Source of the DNA: a bacterium
GTDB taxonomy: Bacteria; SAR324; NAC60-12
Reading direction: 5' to 3'
NCBI GenBank assembly: GCA_965233585.1
Contig: CBDDTI010000746.1
Coordinates: 288,001 to 352,000, forward strand
Length of the DNA: 64,000 bases
How positions within the stretch are numbered: position 1 is the stretch's first letter; the number at the start of each line of letters is the position of its first letter. The notes beneath the pieces were generated by a model. The model saw only the letters and a list, made by a program, of their open reading frames with translations, ran no database searches and was not told the origin of the DNA. Both the position numbers and the translations under genes were made by a program. Positions 1-13,076 of the stretch are shown piece after piece.

Positions 1-224
1 AACGTTTTAATGAAGTTTTTCATATGTTTATAGCCATTCATAAAAGGTTAGGAAAACAACTTGTTAACTTTTTTCAAACCTTGCAAATTTTTCCAAAAAG
101 TCAACAAAGTGGGTGCAGTCTAAAGCAGGAAAAAAGATAAGTCAAGTTATTTTTTTGCAAAAAAGGGGGCAATTCTGCTCCCTTTGTCTTGCCTTTGTCT
201 TCAAGCACAACTTCCATCTTCGTT

Positions 225-565
225 GCCTTTTCGTCACCTGCGGGCTTGTGTTTAAGTCATTGTGGGTTTGTTTTTTGTCATTGCTCATCTTGACCCGCAA
301 TCTCTCTTTTTTTCTCATTCCTCACTTTCTCACCTGTGGGCTTGTTTTTTGGTCGTGGCTCACCTTGTTCCGCAATCTCATTCTTGTTTTTGAGATTTGG
401 TGTCAAGCCTGCAAACTTCTCCTGTCATTCCTGCGAAAGCAGGAATCCAATCATGTAGGAATCTGTGCTTTGTTTAAGATAGATTCCGTGTCAAGCACGG
501 AATGACGTCAGGATTTTGCTCATCTTGAGAACTGTCATTGCTCACCTTGACCCGCAATCTCAAAT
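225..565. repeat. Cluster of REP-like hairpin elements (GTCATT-stem-loop-ATCT/ATCC family)
   Basis: gtcattcctgcgaaagcaggaatcc (424), agattccgtgtcaagcacggaatgac (481) and gtcattgctcaccttgacccgcaatct (534); the same elements recur at 15.3, 35.3, 39-40 and 41.5 kb. Confidence 0.85.
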
Positions 566-650
566 TTCCATTTTTTCAAAAACTAACCCGCTTGTTTCTT
601 TGACTTTTTGCTCAACTCATCAAAAATAATTAAAAAAGACGATTTTCCAG

Positions 651-680
651 TTGCATTTGTTTTGAGCAGTCTGCTAGAAT
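651..680 (+). promoter_or_regulatory. Putative sigma70 promoter of lipoprotein copy 1
   Basis: TTGCAT-18 nt-TAGAAT with extended -10 TG; conserved upstream of all four paralogs. Confidence 0.6.
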
Positions 681-735
681 CATCAACTTATTTTTTGTTC
701 GTTCTCATTTAACCAAATCATTTAGGAGTTTTTTT

Positions 736-1440
736 ATATTAGAACAAATCAAATCCATTCAAATCCTTTTTGTCAGGTGCGGGTCTTTTTATGACAAGAT
801 AATTGTTTTCCTGACACTGCTGGTCTTGGCAGGTTGCACACCGCCTGCTGAAGAAAACGAGGGGGAAGCCACCCAAAATCAAGCCACTTGCGAGGTCACC
901 TCTGGCAGTTCTTTGGCAACGGGTCAAGAATTGGTTGCAGACTTAACATGCGCTGTATCAAACATTTATCAAGGCAAACGGTTAAGCATCACTTACGATG
1001 AAAGTTTGACGTCTTTGAAGCTGGTTGTGTCAGGGGACAAAGCAGTCGGACAGATTGGAGGGGAGACAGTTGGACAGAGTGGAACGTTAAACTACAAATT
1101 ACCTAGAAAAAAAGAGTTTCAAGCCAAGCTGAAGTTGGCAGGAGTCGCAGCAGGCAAGGGACAACTCAAGTTCAAAATCTTGAGAAAAAAATCAAATTGG
1201 GATTTTACAGTGGTCAATGGAGGTTCTAACTCATCGTCAGGTTCCAGTGGGGGAAGTAAGGCATTGACTCTGGGTGCTGCGGTCACGTCAACTGCTTTTA
1301 CCAAAATGCAGGACACATCAGGCAAAGTCAATGAACGCGAAATTCCAGTCTTGTGTCGGCTTGATACGCCTGTGGAAATTCATTATTACAAAAATGGTGG
1401 AATCCTCCACACTGTCCTACGTAGCTTCATGCAAAGCTGA
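736..1440 (+). pseudogene. Variable lipoprotein family copy 1; start codon ATA; 3' truncated and fused to an aconitase C-terminal fragment
   Basis: Continuous frame from ata at 736 (ILEQIKSIQ...[17 protein letters not shown] lipobox); matches the paralogs up to MQDTSGK (1328), then reads [28 protein letters not shown], the AcnA C-terminal motif. Confidence 0.8.
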
Positions 1441-1555
1441 CTTGATTTGAACTCAGACCAATCCTGTTTGAAAGTAACATTTTTGATGAATATCCTGCAG
1501 AAGAAAGCAAGTGGGAAAGTCTTTAAACTCCAAAAATCCCTTGTCCCTAGCTGAC

Positions 1556-4500
1556 TTAAATCTCTCCACCAACACCTTTGAATTTGTCAACGAAGGCAGA
1601 GATTTTATCAAAAACGGTTTGTTTTTTCGTGTGATATTGCGGATTAAGGGGACTCATTTTGGGTAGTGCTTCGTTGAGTTCTGTGCCATTTTTGCTGGCA
1701 AATTTTCGTTCCAGTGATTTTTTGATGTAACGTTTTGCCGCTGCATCGTTTAGCTCTTCTTCTTTTATCAGTTCGGTTGCTTCTCTTTGCTGTTCTTGTC
1801 GTGCAAAAGTAAAAAATGCTTCAATCATGCTGGCTTTGTCCTCAAATGTTGCAAAATCAGCCTGATGAATGAAGTCAAGTAACAATCCTTCCTTTGATCT
1901 GTGGTCTAGGCTGGAGCTTATCATGCGTTTGACATCTTCAATCAAAGTGTCTTTGCTTTTGGTCTTTTGGTTTTTCTCAAAAATAAGCTCCAAAATATAA
2001 TCAAGGTCAATTTCTTGGGATTTGAGCAAGTCCACTTCAAACACCACATCGTCCCAATCTATCTTAGACTCGTCTTGTTTCTCTGATGCTCTTTCTTTGA
2101 TGAGCCAATCGCGAATGTCGTTATATGTAGAACGATAGTCTTGAATGGTGCGTTCTGACGGCATTTCTATTGTTTGTATGGTGGCAAAATCGTCATCGCT
2201 TAGATGGTGTTGTTTTTTAAATTCTTCTATCTCATCGGGGTTTTTTGTGTCAAGATTTTGCAAGGTTTTAAGGGTAGTAAACTCATCATAATTTTGCAGC
2301 ACATTTTCTAGCCGTAAGTACTCACCAAATAACTTGACAAATTCTTTTTTATCATCTTCTTTGTCAATTTTAGCAGGGTTAGGAAATCGTTCTTGCAAGT
2401 CCTTCACAACGTCTTTAAAACCTCGTGTCACTTGACCTGTTGCAATGTCTTTAAAGCCTTCCATGTATTCCTGATAGCTTTTCTCCAAGATGACTTGCTC
2501 GGTATGACTCCCACTTTTGCCAAATAATTTGATGGCATCTTTCGTGGCTGGTTCTAGGTTGCGAAAGGTGACAATATTGCCAAAGGTTTTGGTGGCATCA
2601 TAAATGCGGTTGGTGCGGGAAAAGGCTTGAATCAAGCCATGAAAACGCAAATTTTTATCTACAAATAAGGTGTTCAAAGTAGGAGCATCAAAGCCTGTTA
2701 AAAACATTCCTACCACGATTAACAAATCCACTTCTTGAGCCTTCACCCGCTTTGCCAAATCGCGATAATAGTTTTGAAATGCTTGGCTCTCTACACTGAA
2801 GCTAGTTTTAAAATATTCGTTATAATCAGCAATGACTTTGCCTAAAAATTCTTTTGCGGTTTGGTCCCTGGTGATTGTCTCAAAGTCCTCATCTGCAATC
2901 TCACCGATGGCATGTTGTTCTTCGTTGGCAGCAAAGGAAAAGATGGTCGCAATTTTTAGTTTCTTATCGCTGTGTTCTTGCAATGTTTGAAAGGTTTCAT
3001 AATACGATTTGGCGGCATCTATACTGCTGACGGCAAACATGGCATTAAAACCTTTGTTATTGCTTTGCAAGCGGTGCGTCTTGTGATGAAAGTTGTTGAG
3101 GACATACTGCGCAATTTCCTTGATACGATTGGGGTGCAAGAATGCTTTTTTGTCCTCTTCTGCAAAAAATTTTTGCTCATCTTGTTCGGTTTCAATCGCT
3201 TTGAACTGGGGGCGGACATCATTGTAATCTACCTTGAATTTAAGCACTTTTTCATCACGAATAGCATCGGTGATGACATAAGAGTGTAGCTCGCAACCAA
3301 ACACGCTTTGTGTTGTCTCTGCACCTGAGGCGTTGTCAAGAAAAATTGGCGTCCCTGTAAAACCGAATTGATAAAATTGCTTAAACTTCTTTCTTAAGTT
3401 TTTCTGTGCCTCACCAAATTGGCTGCGGTGGCATTCGTCAAAAATAAACACCACTTGCTGATTGTACACGGGCAAGCCTGTTTCACCTTTCATCAGGTTG
3501 TTGAGTTTTTGAATGGTGGTGACGATGATTTTATTGTCATCTTTGCTTAAATTGCGTTTGAGTGCAGCAGTGCTGCTTGAACCGTTGACGCTATCAGGTG
3601 AGAATTTTTGATACTCTTTCATAGTCTGATAATCAAGGTCTTTTCTATCCACCACAAAAAACACCTTGTCAATAAAATTTAATGCTGTTGCCAAACGTGC
3701 GGTCTTAAAGCTGGTTAAGGTTTTTCCTGAACCTGTGGTGTGCCAAATGTAGCCTCCACTTCCTGGCTTACAACTATTTTTTGCTTGATACGAGCTTTGA
3801 ATCTTCCACAAAATGCGTTCAGTCGCAGCGATTTGATAGGGACGCATGACAAGCAAAGTTTCGTTTGCATCAAATACCGAATATTTTAATAACACATGAA
3901 GCAGGGTGTTTTTTTGCAAAAAAGTAGCAGTAAAGTCTTTGAGGTCTTTAATCAAAGTATTGTCAGCCCTTGCCCAATTCATGGTAAAGTCAAAGCTGTT
4001 TTTGTCCCGTTTGGTGGTGTTAGCAAAATAGCGGGTATCCGTGCCGTTGGAGATGACAAAAATTTGCAAATACTTATACAAAGAATTGTCGCTGTTGAAA
4101 CTTTCTTTGCTGTAACGATGGACTTGATTAAAGGCTTCGCGAATGGCAACGCCACGTCTTTTTAGCTCCAAATGCACCAAAGGCAAGCCATTAATCAAAA
4201 TCGTCACATCATAGCGGTTGGCATGGCTACCTGTTTGCTCAAATTGTCCAATCACTTGCAACTTATTCTTAGCGAGATTCTTTTTGTCTAGCAAATAAAT
4301 ATTTTTAATATGTCCGTCATCAAAGACAAAATCATAAATATAGTTATCGTGAATTTTACGTGATTTTTCCTCCAAAATATCGCTGGCTTTATCCAGATAT
4401 TGCTCCACAAATCGTTGCCATTCATCATTAGAAAACTGAACGTCATTTAAGTTTTGTAATTGTGTGCGGACATTGGCAAGCATCGCATCAGGGCTTTTGA

Positions 4501-4657
4501 TATTTTTGCAATACTCATAACCTTGATTTTGCAAATCCTGTATCAATTCACGTTCTAAATCTGCCTCAGTTTGATAACTTGTTGACTGTTCTAGTTCGTC
4601 ATATTTATCCAGAACAATAAAATTATTAGATTCTATGATGGGTTTGTAATGATTCAT
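1556..4657 (-). CDS. hsdR: Type I restriction endonuclease subunit R, EcoR124 (type IC) family
   Basis: [22 protein letters not shown] nuclease motif, HTTGSGKT Walker [28 protein letters not shown]; likely start MNHYKP at 4657 with GGAG RBS (the extension to 4726 is repeat-derived). Confidence 0.95.
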
Positions 4658-4675
4658 AAGATGATCTCCAGTATT

Positions 4676-4825
4676 TTTAACCACAGATAAACACAGATAA
4701 ACACAGATAAGCTTCACAAAAAACACTATTTAATCTGTGTTCATCGTGTTCATCTGTGGTTTATTCTTAATGTTTTATTACATCTTTTTGACCACAGATG
4801 CACTCAAATTAACACAGACAGGTTT
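4676..4825. repeat. GxxExxY-associated palindromic repeat, block A
   Basis: accacagataaacacagataaacacagat ... atctgtgttcatcgtgttcatctgtggtt ... accacagat; inverted arms built from about 10-nt tandem units. Confidence 0.85.
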
Positions 4826-5203
4826 TCACAGAACCATTCTTTTAATCTGTATTTTAGGTGTGCCAAAGTTAATGATTAATCCCAAAGGGAGTTTTGTTGC
4901 TTTAAGATAGTTGAGAAGCTGGGCTTGATGGATATTGTTCAGAGTTTGTACTGCCTTGATTTCAAGAATCACCTGTTGATTGACCAGAATATCAGCAAAG
5001 TATTCACCAACTACTTGACCTTTGTAGGCAATAGTCATCATCTTTTCTTTTTCTGCTTTTAACCCTGCATCTGCTAATTCAATCATCATGGCATTTTGAT
5101 AGACTTTTTCCAAAAAACCTGCTCCAAGCGTGTTTGATACAGTAAAAGCACAACCAATTACCTCCCCCGAAATATCATTTAATCTGTGTTGTTCTGTATT
5201 CAT
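4826..5203 (-). CDS. GxxExxY protein (PD-(D/E)XK nuclease-like)
   Basis: LGAGFLEKVY (GxxExxY), ADILVNQQVILEIKAV, AQLLNYLKAT...GLIINFG. Confidence 0.92.
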   Translation of the reverse strand: MNTEQHRLNDISGEVIGCAFTVSNTLGAGFLEKVYQNAMMIELADAGLKAEKEKMMTIAYKGQVVGEYFADILVNQQVILEIKAVQTLNNIHQAQLLNYLKATKLPLGLIINFGTPKIQIKRMVL

Positions 5204-5402
5204 CTTTGTTCTTTTTCAATACTTTTTAATCCGTGTTCATCTGTGGTTTATTCTTAATGTTTTATTACGTCTTTTTAACCACAGATGGACTCAGATCAAC
5301 ACAGATAATGTATCACAGAATCTTCTTTTAATCTGCGTTTATCAGTGTTTATCTGTGGTTTTTTCAATACTATTTCATCTGTACTCATTTGTGGTTCTTT
5401 TC
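5178..5402. repeat. GxxExxY-associated palindromic repeat, block B
   Basis: gtgttcatctgtggtttattcttaatgttttattacgtctttttaaccacagat is nearly identical to 4746-4799; further atctgtggtt arms; overlaps the GxxExxY start. Confidence 0.85.
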
Positions 5403-5404
5403 AA

Positions 5405-5875
5405 TTAAATAGTAATAAAATTAAGCCGATGATTTTCTTGAATCAAGGATTTCATTGAATGTAAGGCTTGGTCAAATGCTTTTTTGTTTTGCAAAAGGCG
5501 TTGCTGATTGATGGTGTAGCCAGCCACCAAATGCTGTTTAAGAATGCCTGTTGCCCATTGGCGAAACTGCACACCACGTTGAGATTTCACACGATAACCA
5601 ACTGAAATAATCACATCAAGATTGTAATAATCTACTTGGTATATTTTGCCATCTTTGGCAGTTGTTGCATTTTTTGCAACAACTGCGGAACGTTCTAATT
5701 CTTGCTCATTAAGCAGATTTCGCAGATGACGGGATATGACTGATTTATCGTGTTCAAATAATTGCGACATCTGGTCTAGGCTAAGCCATACGGTCTCATT
5801 GTCTAGGGTAACTTTTAGCTCAAGTTGCCCGTCCTTAGATTGATAGATTTGGATTTGTTGTAGGTGGCTAGACAT
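5405..5875 (-). CDS. RhuM-family protein, N-terminal part only (probably truncated)
   Basis: ETVWLSLDQMSQLF, YYNLDVIISVGYRVKSQRGVQFRQWAT; only 156 aa and ends at repeat block B. Confidence 0.8.
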   Translation of the reverse strand: MSSHLQQIQIYQSKDGQLELKVTLDNETVWLSLDQMSQLFEHDKSVISRHLRNLLNEQELERSAVVAKNATTAKDGKIYQVDYYNLDVIISVGYRVKSQRGVQFRQWATGILKQHLVAGYTINQQRLLQNKKAFDQALHSMKSLIQENHRLNFITI

Positions 5876-5878
5876 GGA

Positions 5879-7444
5879 TTATTTCACTTGGTTGCTGATT
5901 TTGAAATCTAAAAAAGATATATTCTTGCTTTTGAGTTCTTTTAGATATTCTTGACCCTCAGGGATGTTTGATTTGTCACTAGCATGCTCGTATAAAAACA
6001 GCCAAAAGCGATCTTGTTCTCGCTTATCACTTGTTTTTATTTCTTCTACTTTACAGTCAAAAAGACGTGATTTTAATCTAAACTTTTTGGTGTACTTCCA
6101 TGCCAATAGGATAGAGATACAATCATTATATTCTATAACCTTTTCTCTCCATTTCTTAGAAAGTTTACTAATTTTCACTCCATATTTAATTGCAAAATAA
6201 AAACAAAAAGACAAAGCATCAGTCTGTCCCCTTTCTATGGACTGACGAAACAATAAGGGTAGGAAAACTTTGATTGACTGTTGTTGATTGCTAGCAAAAA
6301 TCAAAACAAACCCTTCTAGTAATGGAATCAAATACGGATACAATAAAGACAAAGAAAGGATTTTCTTAACATATAATTTTTTCGCTCTGTCGGACAGACT
6401 CTTTTTAGAGATAACTTTAATGGCGTAATTAACTGGGGCAAAGTCATCATAGTCTTTGGCTATTGAGATAGCTAAGTTTAAGTAAGCATTTATTGAATTA
6501 AAACCTATTTTCTCTTTATCTGGAAAATTAAATTGATTGAGTTTTTGAGTCCATACACTCTCGTGATATTCAATAAGAGTGCAAATTGAAGTTTTCTTTT
6601 GGTTAAGTAGTAACTCATACTCCTTTAAAGCTAACTCCAATGTTTTAAGAAAGTTGTTAGCATTGTTCTCATCTTCAGCAAAATAAGTATAGTCATCAAT
6701 ATAGCGAATAACTTTTTTAAACCCCTTTTCTTGTAAGATATAATCTACAGAAGTTAGGATTATTTCAGAAACAATATTTGACGTGTGAGGGCCGATTAAA
6801 AGCCCATTAGTCTGTGAGTCGTTACAGTTTCTCACATCTCTATCCAAATTATTTGACCAGTGTGATTTTTCATCTTTGTTTTTTCTATTAGTTGGAAATC
6901 GTTTTTCTTTAGCTTCGTCTTTTCCTTGTATTGCCCAAGGAATTGAGTGGGTATAAATACTTGGAAAGCAAGTTGAAATATCTGCCTTCACTACATATTC
7001 GCAACCTAAGCAATAATCTTGTTCACACTCTTCTTTTTTCCACTTTTCCCACCCTTCATAACTCATTTCAAAAATATGCTTCTTACCTTTAATTTTTCTA
7101 ACATGGCAAAAATTGAATTTAGTTTTTGGCTTGCCTATGTGTTCATTAATAGATGTCCAATATTTTTCAATTGTTTTACACAAGTGCATGTGAGATTCTG
7201 GGTGAGGTATTGCTAATTGTCTGGAAATGCCTTTATTTCTGGTTGCCATATATGAAATGCTTGCATGCGCACAACGTTTAGAACCATTAGTCTTAAAATC
7301 AAAATCTAGTAAAAAATTTGATGAAAAACAGGGGGGTAGTTTATCGGCAAACATACCATATCCTAGCAATGCTGTATAGACATCTTCGGCATCTATAAGA
7401 TCAATATATGCTAGAGAGAAAATACTTATACCTTTATAGTTCAT
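5879..7444 (-). CDS. Reverse transcriptase, class-1 UG/Abi type (DRT4/AbiK-like) with helical C-terminal region; likely antiphage
   Basis: [51 protein letters not shown], catalytic [14 protein letters not shown]. Confidence 0.88.
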
Positions 7445-7519
7445 TAATAAATTACGATAATATTCATATTGCTTTTGTCTTAGCTCAATCTCACGCGGTA
7501 GCCCTTCGCTGATGCTATT
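7442..7519 (-). repeat. Duplicated 3' conserved region of hsdS, in frame with the RT start
   Basis: Encodes [26 protein letters not shown], the same peptide as hsdS 7698-7775, with a few synonymous differences. Confidence 0.9.
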
Positions 7520-7676
7520 TTTGTTTATCTGTGGCTTTTTCCTAATGCTTTATTACGTCTTTTTGACCACAGATAAACACAAAAAACACAGATGATGCGT
7601 CACAGAATCTTTTTTAATCAGTGTTCATCTATGTTCATCGGTGGTTAAAAAATCATCTACTTTCATCTGTGGTTAC
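7520..7676. repeat. GxxExxY-associated palindromic repeat, block C
   Basis: gtttatctgtggctttttcctaatgctttattacgtctttttgaccacagataaacac...gtgttcatctatgttcatcggtggtt; the last arm lies in the final hsdS codons (TTDESR). Confidence 0.85.
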
Positions 7677-8912
7677 TTCCTCTGGTTTTGGAAAGCTCAT
7701 CAATAAATTACGATAATATTCATATTGCTTTTGACGCAATTCAATCTCACGCGGTAGTCCTTCGCTGATGCTATTGCTCAAAGTGTCAAATCGGTCAAGA
7801 ATGTCAACAATCTTTTGCTGAATTTGCAACGATTTTTCTGGGTTGTCGGGGCAGGGGATTGGAAATTTAGTATCTTTAATCATCGGTTTAGTGAGCTGGG
7901 GAATGCCCGCCTCTGGCACCTTATAATTTTTCTCAATAGTTTTCATAAAATAATAAGCATACTTCAAATTTATGTTGATTTTTGGAGTTAGCACTAACAA
8001 ACGAATTATTGGAAAAATAGGATAATCTCTGTAACTTGTCCAACCTATCGTACCTCTAGCTGATATAGTTAAACTTGGCTCATTCAACTTTGCTTCTTTT
8101 GTCCATCCATATAATGATTTCTCACCTATTCCGTTAGATAAAATAGGCACATTAAACTGCTCTGTTTCTATATCTGAAAATGCGTCTTTTGGTTTATCGC
8201 CACCAGCAAAGATACTAAAAACCTCCCCCAATGTTTTCCATTCTACCCTTGCACCGTCTAGTAGTTTTTGTAAAAAGGGTATCTGTGTTAATCCGTGTTT
8301 ATTTGTGGTTGAAAAATCTAATAATCTATCGCGATAATAACTATACTGCTTTTTACGTGCTGTAAGCTCTGCTGTAAGCTCTGCTGTAAGCTCTGCTGTA
8401 AGCGTAGTGAACTTATCCAAAATGTCAACTATTTTTTGCTGAATTTGTAAAGATTTTTCTGGATTTTCTGGGCAGGGAATTGGGATTTTTATTTTTTCTA
8501 CCTGATGGCTCATCAATTTTGGATTACCCATTCCAGAATAAACATGTTTTTGTGCTTCAATTGAAAGCCAGTAGAACAAAAATTTATAATTTAAAATAGA
8601 GATACTATCAATCTTTATTAAACCACAGACATTTGTAATAGAAAATTTTTCATTGCGGTAAAAAACAGTTCCTGCGTTTGCTCCATCCGTTGTCCATGTT
8701 ACAAATTCACCTTCGAAATCAAATGTGTTAATTTTACCTATCATTCCATTATTTGCTGTTTGTGAACTATAAACAGGATAGTTACCAGCATTATCAGTTA
8801 AATAACTTTTTGACATTACACGCCCCCTTTTTAAATCACAAACCTCTCCCAATGTTTTCCATTCTACCTTTGCGCCGTTGAGTAGGTTTTGTAAAAAGAT
8901 TTGTTTATTCAT
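7653..8912 (-). CDS. hsdS: Type I R-M specificity subunit, type IC
   Basis: VEWKTLGEV twice, IPCP(E/D)[17 protein letters not shown] twice, TAEL repeats, [18 protein letters not shown]. Confidence 0.95.
8358..8403 (-). repeat. 12-bp tandem repeat encoding TAEL x3 plus a partial unit
   Basis: tgctgtaagctc x3 followed by tgctgtaagc. Confidence 0.95.
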
Positions 8913-9894
8913 CGTGATTGATATTGTGTTTTTGCATGATGATAGATGCCATTAATTCTTCTTCAGTAGGTAAAATAGTTTGGTATTTTGAAGCGAATAG
9001 TTGTTTATTTTCTTTCAGTATAGAGTATTTAACGATGGTTTCGTCTTTACTGGCACATAGTATGATTCCAATACTTGGATTATCATCTTTGTTTCTTTTT
9101 AAGTCATCAAACATGCGTACATACATGTCCATTTGCCCAATATCTTGGTGAGTAAGTTTGGTTGTTTTAAGGTCTATCACAACAAAGCATTTTAACAAAT
9201 AATTGTAAAACACAAGGTCAATATAAAAGTGAGATGTTTCGGTGCTAATTCTCATTTGTTGAGCAACAAAAGAAAATCCTTTGCCCATTTCAAGTAAAAA
9301 CTCTTTTAGTTCATCAATAATGGCTTGTTCCAATGCGGATTCTTGCAGTTTTATCTGTTCAGGTAATTGCAAAAATTCCAAGACATAAGGGTCTTTGATA
9401 AAATCAAGTAGCTGTTCGTTTTTAGAAGATTTTTTTACTTTCTGTGTTGAAAGCAGTCGGGCGTAATAATTTGATTTGATATTGCGTTCTAGTTGGCGAA
9501 CGCTCCAATTTTCTGTGCGGCTTTCTTTGCAATAATATTCAACGGTTTTCGCATCATCTATACGCATAATTAACCTGAGGTGGCTCCAACTTAATTCTCT
9601 ACACAGTGTGTAGAGTTTTTCTTGGTGTGGAAATTTGAGGTAAAACTGTCTGCAATTATAAAGATTTGCATAAGAAAACCCCTTGCCAAAATCAAATTTC
9701 AAAGCACTTGAAAGCTCTTCCATAAGCCGTTTGCCATACTTTGCCTTGCTTTCACCATTTTGCTCTTCTACTACTATCCTTTTGCCTATTAACCAATACG
9801 CTTCAACCATAGCAGCATTGATAGCCGAACGCGTTTTGGATCTTGCATTTTGCAAAATACTTTTTATATCAGCGTAAAAATCTTTATTGATCAT
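8905..9894 (-). CDS. YhcG/DUF1016 PD-(D/E)XK nuclease family protein
   Basis: [60 protein letters not shown]. Confidence 0.92.
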
Positions 9895-9896
9895 GT

Positions 9897-10048
9897 TTAA
9901 AGCTCCTGTGTTTTAAATTCGCTGTAGCCTTCATAGTAATAGCTGACGTCAATGCCTTTCATAAAGAGGTTTCGGTCATGGATTTGGTTGGTGAGTGCAT
10001 CTTTGAGCAGTGTTTTGATTTCAAGGTCTTTGACGGGGCTTCGTTGCA
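9897..10048 (-). pseudogene. C-terminal remnant of a Fic adenylyltransferase (class III, NmFic-like), cut by IS1
   Basis: QRSPVKDLEIKTLLKDALT...FMKGIDVSYYYEGY carries the C-terminal SxxxEG inhibitory motif; homology stops at the IS end. Confidence 0.75.
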
Positions 10049-10821
10049 GGCAGTGTTCACTTGATATTGTCATGATATTTTTCAAACCTTTTATAGTCAA
10101 AGAAGAGTTGTAGAGAGTGTTCCAGCATGTCAAAAGTTTTGGAATGTCGTTTAGATTTTCTCATCAAGCGAGCTAGGTTATCTCTGATGGAAGAATTAGA
10201 AGATTCAATGAGATGAGTGTTGTCTTTGCCTATCTGATGCTTTTGTGGAATTTGGAGTTGTGCAAATGCCACTTGATAGCATGAGTTGGCATCTGTATAA
10301 ATCGTTTCAATTCTAGCTCGTTGTGCTTTGACTAGTGCATACAGCTGCTTTGCTGCTGCTAATCCTTTGCCTATCACAAAGGCAATCACACATTGTTCTT
10401 GACGAGAATAGGCTGTCCAAACAGCTACTCTTTGGCTTTTTTTTGAACAAAAGTGTAGATCTCATCCATCTCTATACTATCTACTTGTGCATGGAAACTT
10501 GGTGCGTCTTTTGGAAGTTGAGACACTCTAGCTTTTTTGATCCAGTTGACAATTGAAGCGGGAGACACCTGCAAAAAACGAGCGATCTTTCTGATGCCTA
10601 CACTATTGACATACATCTCTGAGGCTTGACGCTTGGTCTCTAGTGGGATTCTCAAACCATTTGAGGTGAATGCTCTCTGACATGACTTGCAACGATACCT
10701 CTGAACCCCTTTGTAACTTCCATTCTTGATATAAGTCTGACTCCCACAATGATGACAACTTCTCATTTCCATTCCTCAAATTCACTCTCACATGCAATGA
10801 CAATACCAACTAAACACTGCC
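10049..10821 (-). mobile_element. IS1-family insertion sequence (InsA 10425-10772, InsB' 10057-~10445, -1 frameshift)
   Basis: Imperfect TIRs ggcagtgttcacttgatattgtcat / ggcagtgtttagttggtattgtcat; zinc ribbon CHHC..QRYRCKSC; EMDEIYTFV; A8G slippery run; IYTD and HLIESSNSSIR; no target duplication. Confidence 0.92.
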
Positions 10822-11054
10822 CTGCTAAGGGGGGTCAAGTGAAGAAATTAGGAAAAAAGAGAGGTTGCGTGGCAAATCTGCAATGACGGGAAAAACGGGT
10901 AGGAATTGGAACACCTCGTCTTTCGGCTTGTTGCTGGCTTACCTCTGGTCATTGCGGGTATTGACCCGCAATCTCTCTTTTCTTTTTTAATTTTTGTCCC
11001 CTGCTTGCTCACAAAAACACCCTCAGCGTGAGAATTGAAACACTTCAAGTGCTG

Positions 11055-11798
11055 TCATTTGAGTTTTTGAGCAATTTTGAAATACAAGAAGTTGGGTAGG
11101 AGTTTGAGGAGTTTGAGGAAAAAGGTGAATCTTTTGGGAAAATGAATTTCAAAATGCTTTTGTTGTAGTTGTGTTGCAATGATGGTAGCTGCTTCTTGGG
11201 TTGAGAGTTGAGCAGGCATTTTGAAGTCATTTTTGGCAGTCAGGCGGGTTTCTACAAATCCGGGATTGATCAATTTGACATCTAAAAACTCTCCATATTC
11301 CGCGTTTAAACTTTCAGCAAGATTGATCAAAGCGGCTTTGGTGCAAGCATAAGGCTGTGCTTTTGCCAAACCCCGATACCCTGCCACGCTGCCACAAATC
11401 GCAATTTGTCCATGCCTTCCATTCACAAATGACGGAAGCACGGTTTGAATTGCATAAAACGCTCCCATCAAATTGACTTGAATTGTCTGCTCTATGTTCT
11501 GTTGAGTGACTTCTAGCAAAGGGCTTGGTTCATAAATTCCTGCCATGAAGACTAAACTGTCCAAAGTTTGCCAATGGGATTCAATAGTCTTCCATGCCTT
11601 CACAAGTTGCGAGGGCTGGGTGATGTCTAATTCTAATGCCAGATGTTTTTCAATTCCAATTTGCTGATGAATTTGAGCTAAAGCGGCTTGACTTCTGCCA
11701 GAAAGTGCCACTTGATGACCCTGCTGGGCAAGTTTTAAGGCAAGGGCATGTCCAATGCCATGACTTGCCCCGATGATCCAGAATTTTTTTGAAACCAT
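11055..11798 (-). CDS. Short-chain dehydrogenase/reductase
   Basis: IIGASHGIG, YACTK (YxxxK), INPGFVET. Confidence 0.9.
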   Translation of the reverse strand: MVSKKFWIIGASHGIGHALALKLAQQGHQVALSGRSQAALAQIHQQIGIEKHLALELDITQPSQLVKAWKTIESHWQTLDSLVFMAGIYEPSPLLEVTQQNIEQTIQVNLMGAFYAIQTVLPSFVNGRHGQIAICGSVAGYRGLAKAQPYACTKAALINLAESLNAEYGEFLDVKLINPGFVETRLTAKNDFKMPAQLSTQEAATIIATQLQQKHFEIHFPKRFTFFLKLLKLLPNFLYFKIAQKLK

Positions 11799-11846
11799 GA
11801 TTCAGATGATTCAATAGATAGCAATGATTGAATAGACAACTATACT

Positions 11847-13076
11847 TTAGAAAGGTTGCAAGATGAGGAATGTCTTTGACGTGCCTTCTTCAGAAAATCC
11901 AACATCAAAACGAATGACGACACTGGACATGATAGCACGGATGCCCACTCCATAATTAGTTTTTAAATTGTCCCACAGTTTTTCATAAAATTGCTCAACA
12001 TTGCCTTCTTCGTAAAAGTAGACAAATTGTAAAGCCTCCAAAGCATCATTAGAAAGTGCAAAGCCGTCCCCTGAAAGCCCAAAATCACCAATCCAAGAAT
12101 ATCGGTATTCTGCGGCATAATAAAGTGTGTGGAGGTCAGTAAACCGACGGTTTGGGTAGCCTCTCATTTGAATTGCCCCGCCCAAAGAGTTCCCCTCTCT
12201 TCTGCTGACAGGGACGTCTTCATTTTTGTTGATGACGGTAGAAAGGTAGTAGTTCATCGCTAATGTATGATTGCTATCTTCACTCCAAAACACAGGCAGG
12301 AATAAGCTGACTTCACGGCTGAAGATGTCAAATGACTCATCAGTTTCGTTTTTGTGCATAAAATTTCCACTTGGACGACGTTGGCTTAAAATGGTGATGG
12401 TTCTCAAGCCAAAACGGGAGTCAAAGCGGTCATCAGTTAAGTCAAGCTCAAAACGATAACGATACCCTGCGGCTTCTGTGATTGTGTCAGCTTCCGGAGA
12501 AGCCGGACCAGAACTGTCTGCTTGATTGCGAAGTTCTTCTTGAACACTTGGAATGTCTGCGGCTTCTTCGGGGGCAACACGGATATGATCGTTTGTGTAA
12601 TAAGTTTCATAAGAAAGTTTTGCGCGATCTACTCCAAAACGCATCTGTGTTTGGTACGCAATCAGTTTGAGTTCTCCATTGACGGGAAAGGGGTCATTGG
12701 GGGAGTCTGTGCCAACATCATAGACATCTAATTCTTTGAGGGCAATGTCTGTTCCTCCTCCAGATAACGTCATAGAAAACCAGCTTTCTTTGTCTCCTAA
12801 TAGAAAAATATCGTTAACAGCAACACCTTTGATGTGAAAATTCCCATTTTGAAAGCTGATGCCTGCTATGTCTGTTCCTGAATCAAAAATATTGGCAACA
12901 CCAAACACCCCCCCATATAACTCACCGATTCCTTCAACGAACACAAACCAAGGTAAAATATAATAAGCATTCGCTCTGCTTCCTTCTTGCTCTCTCCTTC
13001 TTTCAATGGTGTAAGGATTAGCAAAAACTGAATCCACAATCAAAAACGAAATGATGAAATAAAATATCTTTTTCAT
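11847..13076 (-). CDS. Omp85/BamA-TamA-like outer-membrane beta-barrel protein
   Basis: Signal peptide, LGGAIQMRGYPNRRF, NYGVGIR, IRFDVGFSEEG, terminal Phe. Confidence 0.7.
   Translation of the reverse strand: MKKIFYFIISFLIVDSVFANPYTIERRREQEGSRANAYYILPWFVFVEGIGELYGGVFGVANIFDSGTDIAGISFQNGNFHIKGVAVNDIFLLGDKESWFSMTLSGGGTDIALKELDVYDVGTDSPNDPFPVNGELKLIAYQTQMRFGVDRAKLSYETYYTNDHIRVAPEEAADIPSVQEELRNQADSSGPASPEADTITEAAGYRYRFELDLTDDRFDSRFGLRTITILSQRRPSGNFMHKNETDESFDIFSREVSLFLPVFWSEDSNHTLAMNYYLSTVINKNEDVPVSRREGNSLGGAIQMRGYPNRRFTDLHTLYYAAEYRYSWIGDFGLSGDGFALSNDALEALQFVYFYEEGNVEQFYEKLWDNLKTNYGVGIRAIMSSVVIRFDVGFSEEGTSKTFLILQPF

Follow-up and report, generated by a model that had tools for sequence, protein, structure and literature searches.

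What is a reverse transcriptase (RT) doing between the specificity and restriction genes of a type I restriction-modification (R-M) system, and does a copy of the hsdS 3' end running in frame into its start codon mean that the two products were, or could become, one protein? The question is raised by a stretch of 64,000 nucleotides (nt) from a SAR324 bacterium (lineage NAC60-12; GenBank assembly GCA_965233585.1, contig CBDDTI010000746.1, positions 288,001 to 352,000), which is referred to in its entirety as the window and numbered from its first letter. A first-pass annotation had proposed that the RT is physically coupled to the R-M complex, possibly as a guard, with an HsdS-RT fusion either ancestral or attainable by recombination. 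In our assessment, the RT is probably a stand-alone DRT4 enzyme that occupies the hsdS-hsdR slot of a type IC system as cargo and is translated from its own ATG at 7444, the hsdS tail copy before it being a scar.

The affiliation of the RT is clear from profile and structure searches. It matched the PADLOC Drt4 profile PDLC02178 with an expectation value (E) of 8.6e-155, residues 12-516 aligning to profile positions 7-504 of 506. The next-best RT groups among the PADLOC profiles were Drt6 (7.2e-101), UG30 (2.8e-59) and AbiK (2.9e-35), while Pfam RVT_1 matched at 4e-11. The solved DRT4/UG15 structures 9vdo and 21ou were matched at E of about 5e-49 from residue 22 or 34 onwards, the C-terminal part of the RT aligning with the solved enzyme through residue 512. 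Residues R75, Y129, D155, H166, D201, Y248 and D250/D251 correspond to R75, Y125, D149, H160, D192, Y238 and D240/D241 of that enzyme; the YxDD motif reads Y248-I-D250-D251, and all of these residues except Y248 were invariant in 24 of 24 aligned relatives. For the E. coli enzyme, the available texts of PMC12783706 and 10.64898/2026.10.21.760695 assign R75 to DNA binding, Tyr125 to priming (PMC12783706) and Asp149 to metal binding, alongside the YxDD motif, and describe His160 and Asp192 as an RNase pair (10.64898/2026.10.21.760695). Relatives start 4-11 residues ahead of a conserved YPDL motif and the RT read from Met 7444 does likewise (22 of the 24 aligned relatives agree within a few residues), so its N-terminus is complete. 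The protein is thus predicted to be a full-length, stand-alone DRT4/UG15 enzyme of class 1 of the UG/Abi RTs, and the earlier description of it as an antiphage-type class 1 RT is borne out. Its closest relatives are metagenomic, the best (P0002) sharing 61% identity, and BLASTP identities fell to 37% among the best 120. A metagenome scan for closer relatives returned only four loci, at 52% identity or less, and among 40 genomes of the same family or order two held RT matches, both distant (E 8e-17 and 6e-5).

Before the RT, a repeat search returned a direct repeat of 82 nt (7438-7519 and 7694-7775, 90% identical, 256 nt apart). In the copy nearer the RT, the 25 residues of the hsdS tail are encoded without a change, and the codon that comes next is the RT ATG at 7444-7442. 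The second, in-frame HsdS tail reported previously is therefore real, as is the remark that the repeats enclose nothing but the hsdS stop region and a palindromic element: the interval consists of the final 14 codons of hsdS plus its stop (7653-7693) and of hairpin-rich sequence (7520-7652, part of the element termed E-A below). An in-frame TAA at 7528-7526 precedes the tail copy by three codons and the copy contains no ATG, GTG or TTG. Unless a non-standard start is used, it would consequently be an untranslated leader. The two 25-codon copies differ at seven nucleotides, all seven synonymous; when seven substitutions were drawn at random, the peptide stayed unchanged in only 2 of 200,000 draws. 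The repeat is more than chance or neutral drift. Since the differences are exclusively synonymous, both copies would have diverged inside working hsdS genes, and we regard them on that basis as two hsdS alleles, recently juxtaposed, and not as a drifted duplicate. The repeat includes a perfect stretch of 32 nt (positions 42-73 of the 75-nt tail), and the near-identical heptamers ATGAGCT and ATGAACT stand exactly where the similarity of the copies ends. The arrangement is not an artefact of a single assembly, because it is reproduced letter for letter in two other public runs, by contigs that extend from the tail copy through E-A into the hsdS tail (run X1, record 5, 7448-7731; run X4, record 23, 5905-7715). 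Taken together, the tail copy is most likely a recombination scar and not the sign of a fused protein.

HsdR of the surrounding system carries an EcoR124_C domain (Pfam, E 4.6e-66), and HsdS aligns with the EcoR124II HsdS chain (7bst, E 4.2e-51) to within one residue of the chain end; this shows the resident hsdS to be whole and the system to be of type IC, which upholds the placement of the RT in a type IC hsdS-hsdR slot. The proposed start of hsdR is equivalent to the Met used by a relative with 74% identity.

How might such an arrangement have arisen? We suggest that the RT once had an earlier or foreign hsdS allele as its immediate upstream neighbour, an arrangement common among relatives. 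Recombination, homologous on the upstream side and illegitimate at the downstream end, would then have brought in the present hsdS together with a PDDEXK_3 cassette lacking its open reading frame (ORF; E-A). The incoming gene would have replaced the old hsdS except for its tail, and the last 14 codons and stop of that tail may have been lost by a small deletion between ATGAGCT and ATGAACT. By homology to characterised DRT4, the RT would act as a hexamer, prime on its own tyrosine (here Y129) and make untemplated single-stranded DNA; phage proteins of the single-strand-binding (SSB) type and raised deoxynucleoside triphosphates (dNTPs) would then activate the HD-motif RNase, and the infected cell would abort. 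We infer the order of these events, the mechanism in this organism, the expression of the RT and its independence from Hsd proteins.

The neighbourhoods of related RTs offer a test of how exceptional the placement is. We took one genome per species and examined the best 80 of 356 stretches, the nearest ORFs being called by script; upstream counts refer to 78 loci, two of the 80 having no upstream ORF. The gene directly upstream on the same strand encoded HsdS in 21 of the 78, across many phyla and several type I families, so the association with hsd genes extends well beyond this genome, and one further case was found in a metagenome locus (L110). The two genes are separate at each of the 20 hsdS-RT junctions examined, with a stop codon for hsdS and a start codon for the RT, and they overlap by 4-23 nt or lie 2-10 nt apart. 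A full HsdR was encoded downstream of the RT in 15 of the 80 loci (as the first gene in 11 and the second in 4 more). Other R-M genes were the upstream neighbour in eight additional loci (Eco57I/TaqI_C in five, MmeI in two, ResIII in one), and HsdR in one. At least five families are represented among the adjacent HsdS tails, and three C-terminal types among the HsdR proteins (EcoEI_R_C, T1RH-like_C and EcoR124_C). On a tree of 75 RTs, from which six broken or edge rows were omitted, hsdS adjacency required 17 changes for 21 rows, against a mean of 18.8 for shuffled labels, and sister RTs were discordant (L050/L055, L024/L030 and L031/L033). As the placement is common yet constantly gained and lost on the tree, it fits a recombination hotspot better than a co-evolving pair. 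The gene order yhcG-hsdS-RT recurred in L029 (7348-14756) and L067 (1066-6326), from Bacteriovoracaceae and Burkholderiales genomes, with hsdR following in the former and hsdM preceding in the latter; judging from these loci, yhcG is a second frequent passenger of the same operons.

Remnants comparable to the tail copy were found before DRT4 genes in two unrelated lineages. In P0002, an N-terminal piece of HsdR and a C-terminal piece of HsdS stand in frame ahead of the RT. In L050, an hsdS-tail remnant is in frame before the RT and the upstream gene encodes a citrate transporter, while L053 and L055, near-identical sisters of L050, have hsdS intact. These cases suggest that DRT4 genes tend to keep an hsdS stub when the surrounding R-M locus turns over.

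Several observations weigh against the account given above. Firstly, the tail copy joins the RT ATG without an intervening stop, so that the prior state calls for either a second event or a true fusion, and what speaks for the small deletion we propose is a microhomology of six positions in seven. Secondly, the hsdS remnants in the window, P0002 and L050 are all in frame with the RT; the frame in L050 follows from its intact sisters, and for the other two the chance is one in three each. Thirdly, we found no relative in which the same type IC tail family accompanies an RT, and the native junction of this lineage was not seen. In the genome with the 74%-identical hsdR (G007), the contig ends in other repeats about 1.1 kb upstream of that gene, before any hsdS-hsdR junction. 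Fourthly, a promoter and terminator scan of 4600-7800 gave counts at background, with 11 promoter-like sites against 13.0 expected. Finally, the very high rate of hsdS adjacency would also fit a functional tie.

With such a tie, the RT would be linked to the restriction system, serving perhaps as a PrrC-like guard that fires once phage proteins have disabled restriction, or as a second layer set off by events at the Hsd complex. There is a precedent in the same slot: the gene for PrrC lies between hsdS and hsdR of the type IC operon of EcoprrI. The frequency of hsdS immediately upstream of DRT4 genes, with overlapping or nearly overlapping junctions, the full hsdR genes downstream and the other R-M types found upstream all point in this direction. 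We nevertheless consider functional coupling unlikely. Adjacency is distributed on the RT tree much as shuffled labels are, and sister RTs differ; with at least five HsdS tail families and three HsdR types involved, no conserved partner surface is evident; and hsdM has here been moved away from the locus. Moreover, DRT4 protects E. coli as a single recoded gene, with phage SSB-type proteins and dNTPs as the trigger. The physical coupling or guard role put forward by the first-pass annotation is thus unsupported. A bolder version can be formulated, in which DRT4 is a habitual functional partner of type I enzymes, swapped as a cassette anchored on the conserved hsdS 3' helix, which would explain the tail remnants in three lineages, and backing restriction against phage proteins that the nuclease cannot handle; the tail copies in the window could then recombine to an HsdS-RT fusion tethered to the methyltransferase core. 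We hold this to be doubtful.

A different concern is whether the RT has any function at present, given that the locus is broken. The genome contains a single type I-like hsdM (the best of nine N6_Mtase matches), which lies at contig position 362149-363612 on the other strand, about 66 kb away, and has no neighbouring hsdS; the window holds the genome's sole two-domain hsdS. The hsdM-hsdS operon next to hsdR that type IC leads one to expect is accordingly not found, and the first-pass description of a type IC R-M locus is correct for hsdS and hsdR, which are present, but not for hsdM. In the region of the remote hsdM (L109 8150-12372), this gene is followed by a complete rhuM, a small ORF and then the 5' portion of fic, which breaks off at the second copy of an insertion sequence (IS); the first copy borders the locus in the window. 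The two IS copies have the same orientation and are 99.5% identical over 777 nt (10048-10823 and L109 11596-12372). Both fic pieces abut the same (left) end of the IS copies, with a 9-nt duplication in opposite orientation, and another 9-nt duplication, again in opposite orientation, is found at the right IS ends. This pattern is expected if the inner ends of the IS pair attacked fic and inverted the intervening segment. An IS-mediated inversion is hence predicted to have split fic and carried hsdM some 66 kb off, from an original operon that would have read hsdM-rhuM-orf-fic-yhcG-hsdS-RT-rhuM'-PDDEXK_3-hsdR. The IS itself (10048-10823) showed a summed contig depth roughly 5- to 30-fold that of its flanks in four runs, and in two runs there are contigs that lead from its end back into its start across 7 or 24 additional letters, a joint expected of tandem or circular forms.

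The removal of hsdM and half of fic by this inversion, the hsdS remnant, the two ORF-less cassettes, the possibly truncated rhuM and the background level of promoter-like sites upstream of the RT would all suit an unexpressed passenger in a disintegrating locus. That the RT is such a decaying relic is in our view improbable. It is open over 521 codons and keeps all residues known to matter, a rhuM-type gene follows it tightly, and both hsdS and hsdR are intact. The lack of a clear ribosome-binding site, pointed out earlier, stands in that no Shine-Dalgarno-like run precedes the RT ATG, but it does not single out the RT since most genes of the locus are also without one.

The proposed fusion was looked for in databases and in contigs of public runs. 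Recombination between the repeats would, by arithmetic, join hsdS residues 1-405 to RT residues 2-521 in frame as a protein of 925 aa, in agreement with the earlier projection; in the present DNA no single open frame spans hsdS and the RT, with stops at 7653-7655 and 7526-7528. No HsdS-RT fusion was found among 16 longer RT relatives (913-2605 residues, identified by words in common with the RT). In the eight of these 16 that were scanned, the RT domain falls at residues 143-287 approximately, and a pairwise alignment of P0121 places the RT at residues 15-474. DRT4-like proteins of 917-950 aa had been considered as candidate HsdS fusions and were rejected, the RT being N-terminal in the eight scanned of 16; their extra C-terminal portions of about 430 residues matched no known family at E up to 0.01. 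There was again no fusion among the best 150 representatives (HMMER, any length), the largest stretch before the RT being about 97 residues, and of 13 N-termini inspected in this set only that of P0002 was HsdS-like. Conversely, the C-terminal half of this HsdS was used to collect 87 longer proteins; none of them contained an RT domain, and the top one is a tandem HsdS. These searches extend as far as common words with the query or the best 150 matches reach. A run search listed seven runs, five of them containing the stretch and none on record as RNA, and no joint skipping the 256 nt was seen in the Logan contigs of four of the seven (X1, X3, X4 and X5), which is weak evidence as contigs drop rare variants.

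A set of DRT4-like proteins of 841-950 residues (P0121-P0136, P0239, P0241, P0284, P0285, P0296, P0298 and P0318; L069 and L072) has the RT at the N-terminus followed by some 330-430 further residues. In L069 and L072, the long DRT4-like gene is placed after an MmeI-type enzyme.

A programmed switch, in which the 256-nt deletion would give an HsdS-RT fusion, or a functional fusion as the ancestral state, is on these results very unlikely. The frames fit, the repeat holds a perfect 32-nt stretch, the tail peptide is fully conserved, and according to the available text of PMC12783706 a maltose-binding protein on the N-terminus of DRT4 served as a working wild-type control. Yet the three database searches returned no such protein, hsdS ends in a stop at all 20 junctions examined among relatives, the contigs, for what they are worth, lack the deletion, and the event would remove the last 14 residues of HsdS. 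A translated leader, in which a non-AUG start on the tail copy adds an HsdS-like N-terminal helix docking on the methyltransferase core, is barely credible, for although the peptide is perfectly conserved and in-frame ATC and ATT codons occur in the copy, it has the TAA close upstream and none of the usual start codons, not one of the 24 aligned relatives needs an extension (22 start within a few residues of the conserved motif), and the synonymous-only pattern is explained equally well by descent from a working hsdS.

We return to the stand-alone cargo and its resemblance to known systems. With the solved DRT4/UG15 enzymes (21ou, 9vdo and 9ltm) the RT shares its length class, the RT fingers-palm, probably the C-terminal helical repeat region (to judge from the alignment), and the complete set of YxDD motif, priming tyrosine, metal-binding aspartate and His/Asp RNase pair. 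It differs in having a serine where asparagine precedes the priming tyrosine, in the hsdS remnant before it and the rhuM-type gene 3 nt behind it, and in belonging to a clade whose nearest relatives are metagenomic (61% at best). DRT4 is described, in the available portions of three reports, as a hexamer making tyrosine-primed, untemplated single-stranded DNA and triggered by phage SSB-type proteins and dNTPs (PMC12783706; 10.64898/2026.10.27.754916; 10.64898/2026.10.21.760695), and the first of these reports it as active in E. coli as a single gene (PMC12783706). AbiK and Abi-P2 likewise combine protein-primed untemplated DNA synthesis with a hexameric RT and a helical repeat domain, but the match of our RT to AbiK is much weaker than to DRT4 (PDB 7r06, E 5e-14, besides the PADLOC value above), and the priming tyrosine is located elsewhere (PMC12783706, as far as its text is available).

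PrrC of EcoprrI occupies the same slot of a type IC operon and is likewise an effector of the abortive-infection type. It is, however, an anticodon nuclease unrelated to RTs, and its latency depends on the Hsd complex and a phage anti-restriction peptide, a dependence not known for DRT4. The accessible part of 10.1101/2024.01.29.577857 describes PrrC as almost exclusively embedded in type I R-M, and systematic embedding in type I R-M, BREX and DISARM more generally. A closer parallel in terms of position is DarTG2, which lies between hsdS and hsdR in the RRDM island of enteropathogenic E. coli, a site called a potential recombination hotspot for defence systems (PMC12255303, available text). 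That island too holds a separate defence system at the same insertion place; its cargo is another one, and its first gene is a dedicated repressor, RptR, not seen here. For UG/Abi RTs, 'operonization with a type I R-M system' is, as far as the accessible text goes, already in print. The claim of an undescribed system therefore has to be narrowed: defence genes in this slot and UG/Abi operonization have been reported, while our full-text literature searches found nothing specific on a link between DRT4/UG15 and type I restriction, although preprint supplements may hold counts. The available portions of the three DRT4 mechanism papers contain neither 'restriction' nor 'hsd' (PMC12783706; 10.64898/2026.10.27.754916; 10.64898/2026.10.21.760695).

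In large part, then, the locus contributes one more, divergent DRT4 to a family that has been studied well, at a type of site that is also known. It also provides a worked example of cargo swapping in the hsdS-hsdR slot, with a scar that is datable through the synonymous-only divergence of the tails. Only two points go beyond the ordinary: how often DRT4 is linked to hsdS, and the tail remnants. In the sample, about a quarter of the DRT4 genes have hsdS as the immediately preceding gene with a coupled junction, in diverse phyla and type I families, and this is relevant to the question of a shared regulation of single-gene abortive-infection systems and restriction. A functional tie, if true, would make a second PrrC-like case, with a polymerase as effector.

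The features of the locus are collected in Table 1. On the minus strand they run, in the order given there, IS1, fic 3' piece, yhcG, hsdS, E-A, tail copy, RT, rhuM-type gene, E-B, PDDEXK_3, E-C and hsdR.

Table 1. Features at and around the DRT4 gene, in window coordinates unless marked L109.
Feature	Position	Strand	Remarks
IS1-family element	10048..10823	-	Pfam DDE_Tnp_IS1; twin 66 kb away beside hsdM
fic/doc 3' piece, interrupted by IS	9897..10047	-	9-nt target duplication in common with the 5' piece, L109 11128-11595
yhcG (DUF1016 / PDDEXK nuclease)	8905..9894	-	Pfam YhcG_C and DUF1016_N; 8-nt overlap with hsdS start
hsdS, 419 aa, type IC, intact	7653..8912	-	Pfam Methylase_S E 1.1e-58, two stretches; resident repeat copy 7694-7775
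Element E-A, hairpin-rich, PDDEXK_3 cassette copy without ORF	7520..7678	-	Upstream end overlaps hsdS stop
Second copy of the last 25 hsdS codons	7445..7519	-	In frame with RT ATG; whole repeat 7438-7519; read as hsdS remnant
DRT4 (UG15) reverse transcriptase, 521 aa, predicted complete	5879..7444	-	PADLOC Drt4 PDLC02178
RhuM N-terminal-type gene, 156 aa	5405..5875	-	Pfam Virulence_RhuM positions 1-86 of 252; 3 nt past RT stop
Element E-B, second ORF-less cassette copy	5204..5404	-	Matches to PDDEXK_3 flanks
PDDEXK_3 (GxxExxY-type) small nuclease-fold gene	4826..5203	-	Pfam PF13366 E 5.4e-43
Element E-C, between PDDEXK_3 and hsdR	4658..4825	-	
hsdR, type IC (EcoR124_C domain)	1556..4657	-	Pfam HSDR_N, SWI2_SNF2, T1R_D3-like, EcoR124_C; start ATG 4657

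The G+C content is 32-36% over 4000-10000, against 40-44% outside. E-A, E-B and E-C are three copies of a hairpin-rich unit that occurs only in this locus of the 12-Mb genome; the idea that the intergenic element is a genome-wide miniature inverted-repeat transposable element was rejected for that reason. In E-A and E-B, the 5' flank of PDDEXK_3 can be aligned, as can its last codons and 3' flank, but the ORF itself is missing. For E-B, 31 of 37 positions equal the 5' flank and 96 of 109 the last codons and 3' flank. The PDDEXK_3 gene is the only one in its genome, and the elements suggest that this small gene is or was a mobile cassette leaving miniature derivatives. In an Rfam scan of 1-12000 the sole match was a sub-threshold mir-1954 (32 bits against a cut-off of 99), a chance hit on the E-C hairpin.

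The rhuM-type gene behind the RT was matched almost end to end by PADLOC PDC-S05 models of 138-165 positions and may accordingly be a natural short form as opposed to a truncation. A full-length rhuM lies 5 nt past the DRT4 gene in L025 (2801-5435, Polaromonas), a second instance of RT-rhuM adjacency. Upstream of hsdR in G007 (L100 3480-4555) there are long tandem arrays of units of about 40 nt and a fragment resembling a transposase associated with repetitive extragenic palindromes.

Within hsdS, a 12-nt unit occurs three times at 8358-8403 and encodes the TAEL spacer between the two target-recognition domains. In HsdS of the EcoR124 family, TAEL copy number sets the spacer of the recognition site; the gene in the window has one unit more than the aligned EcoR124II chain. 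In run X1, a single contig, of depth 3 and with 30 letters on its shorter side, skips 490 nt inside hsdS, 7859-8350, near two repeated conserved regions of the gene (7795-7868 and 8416-8489), and may derive from another allele or another organism.

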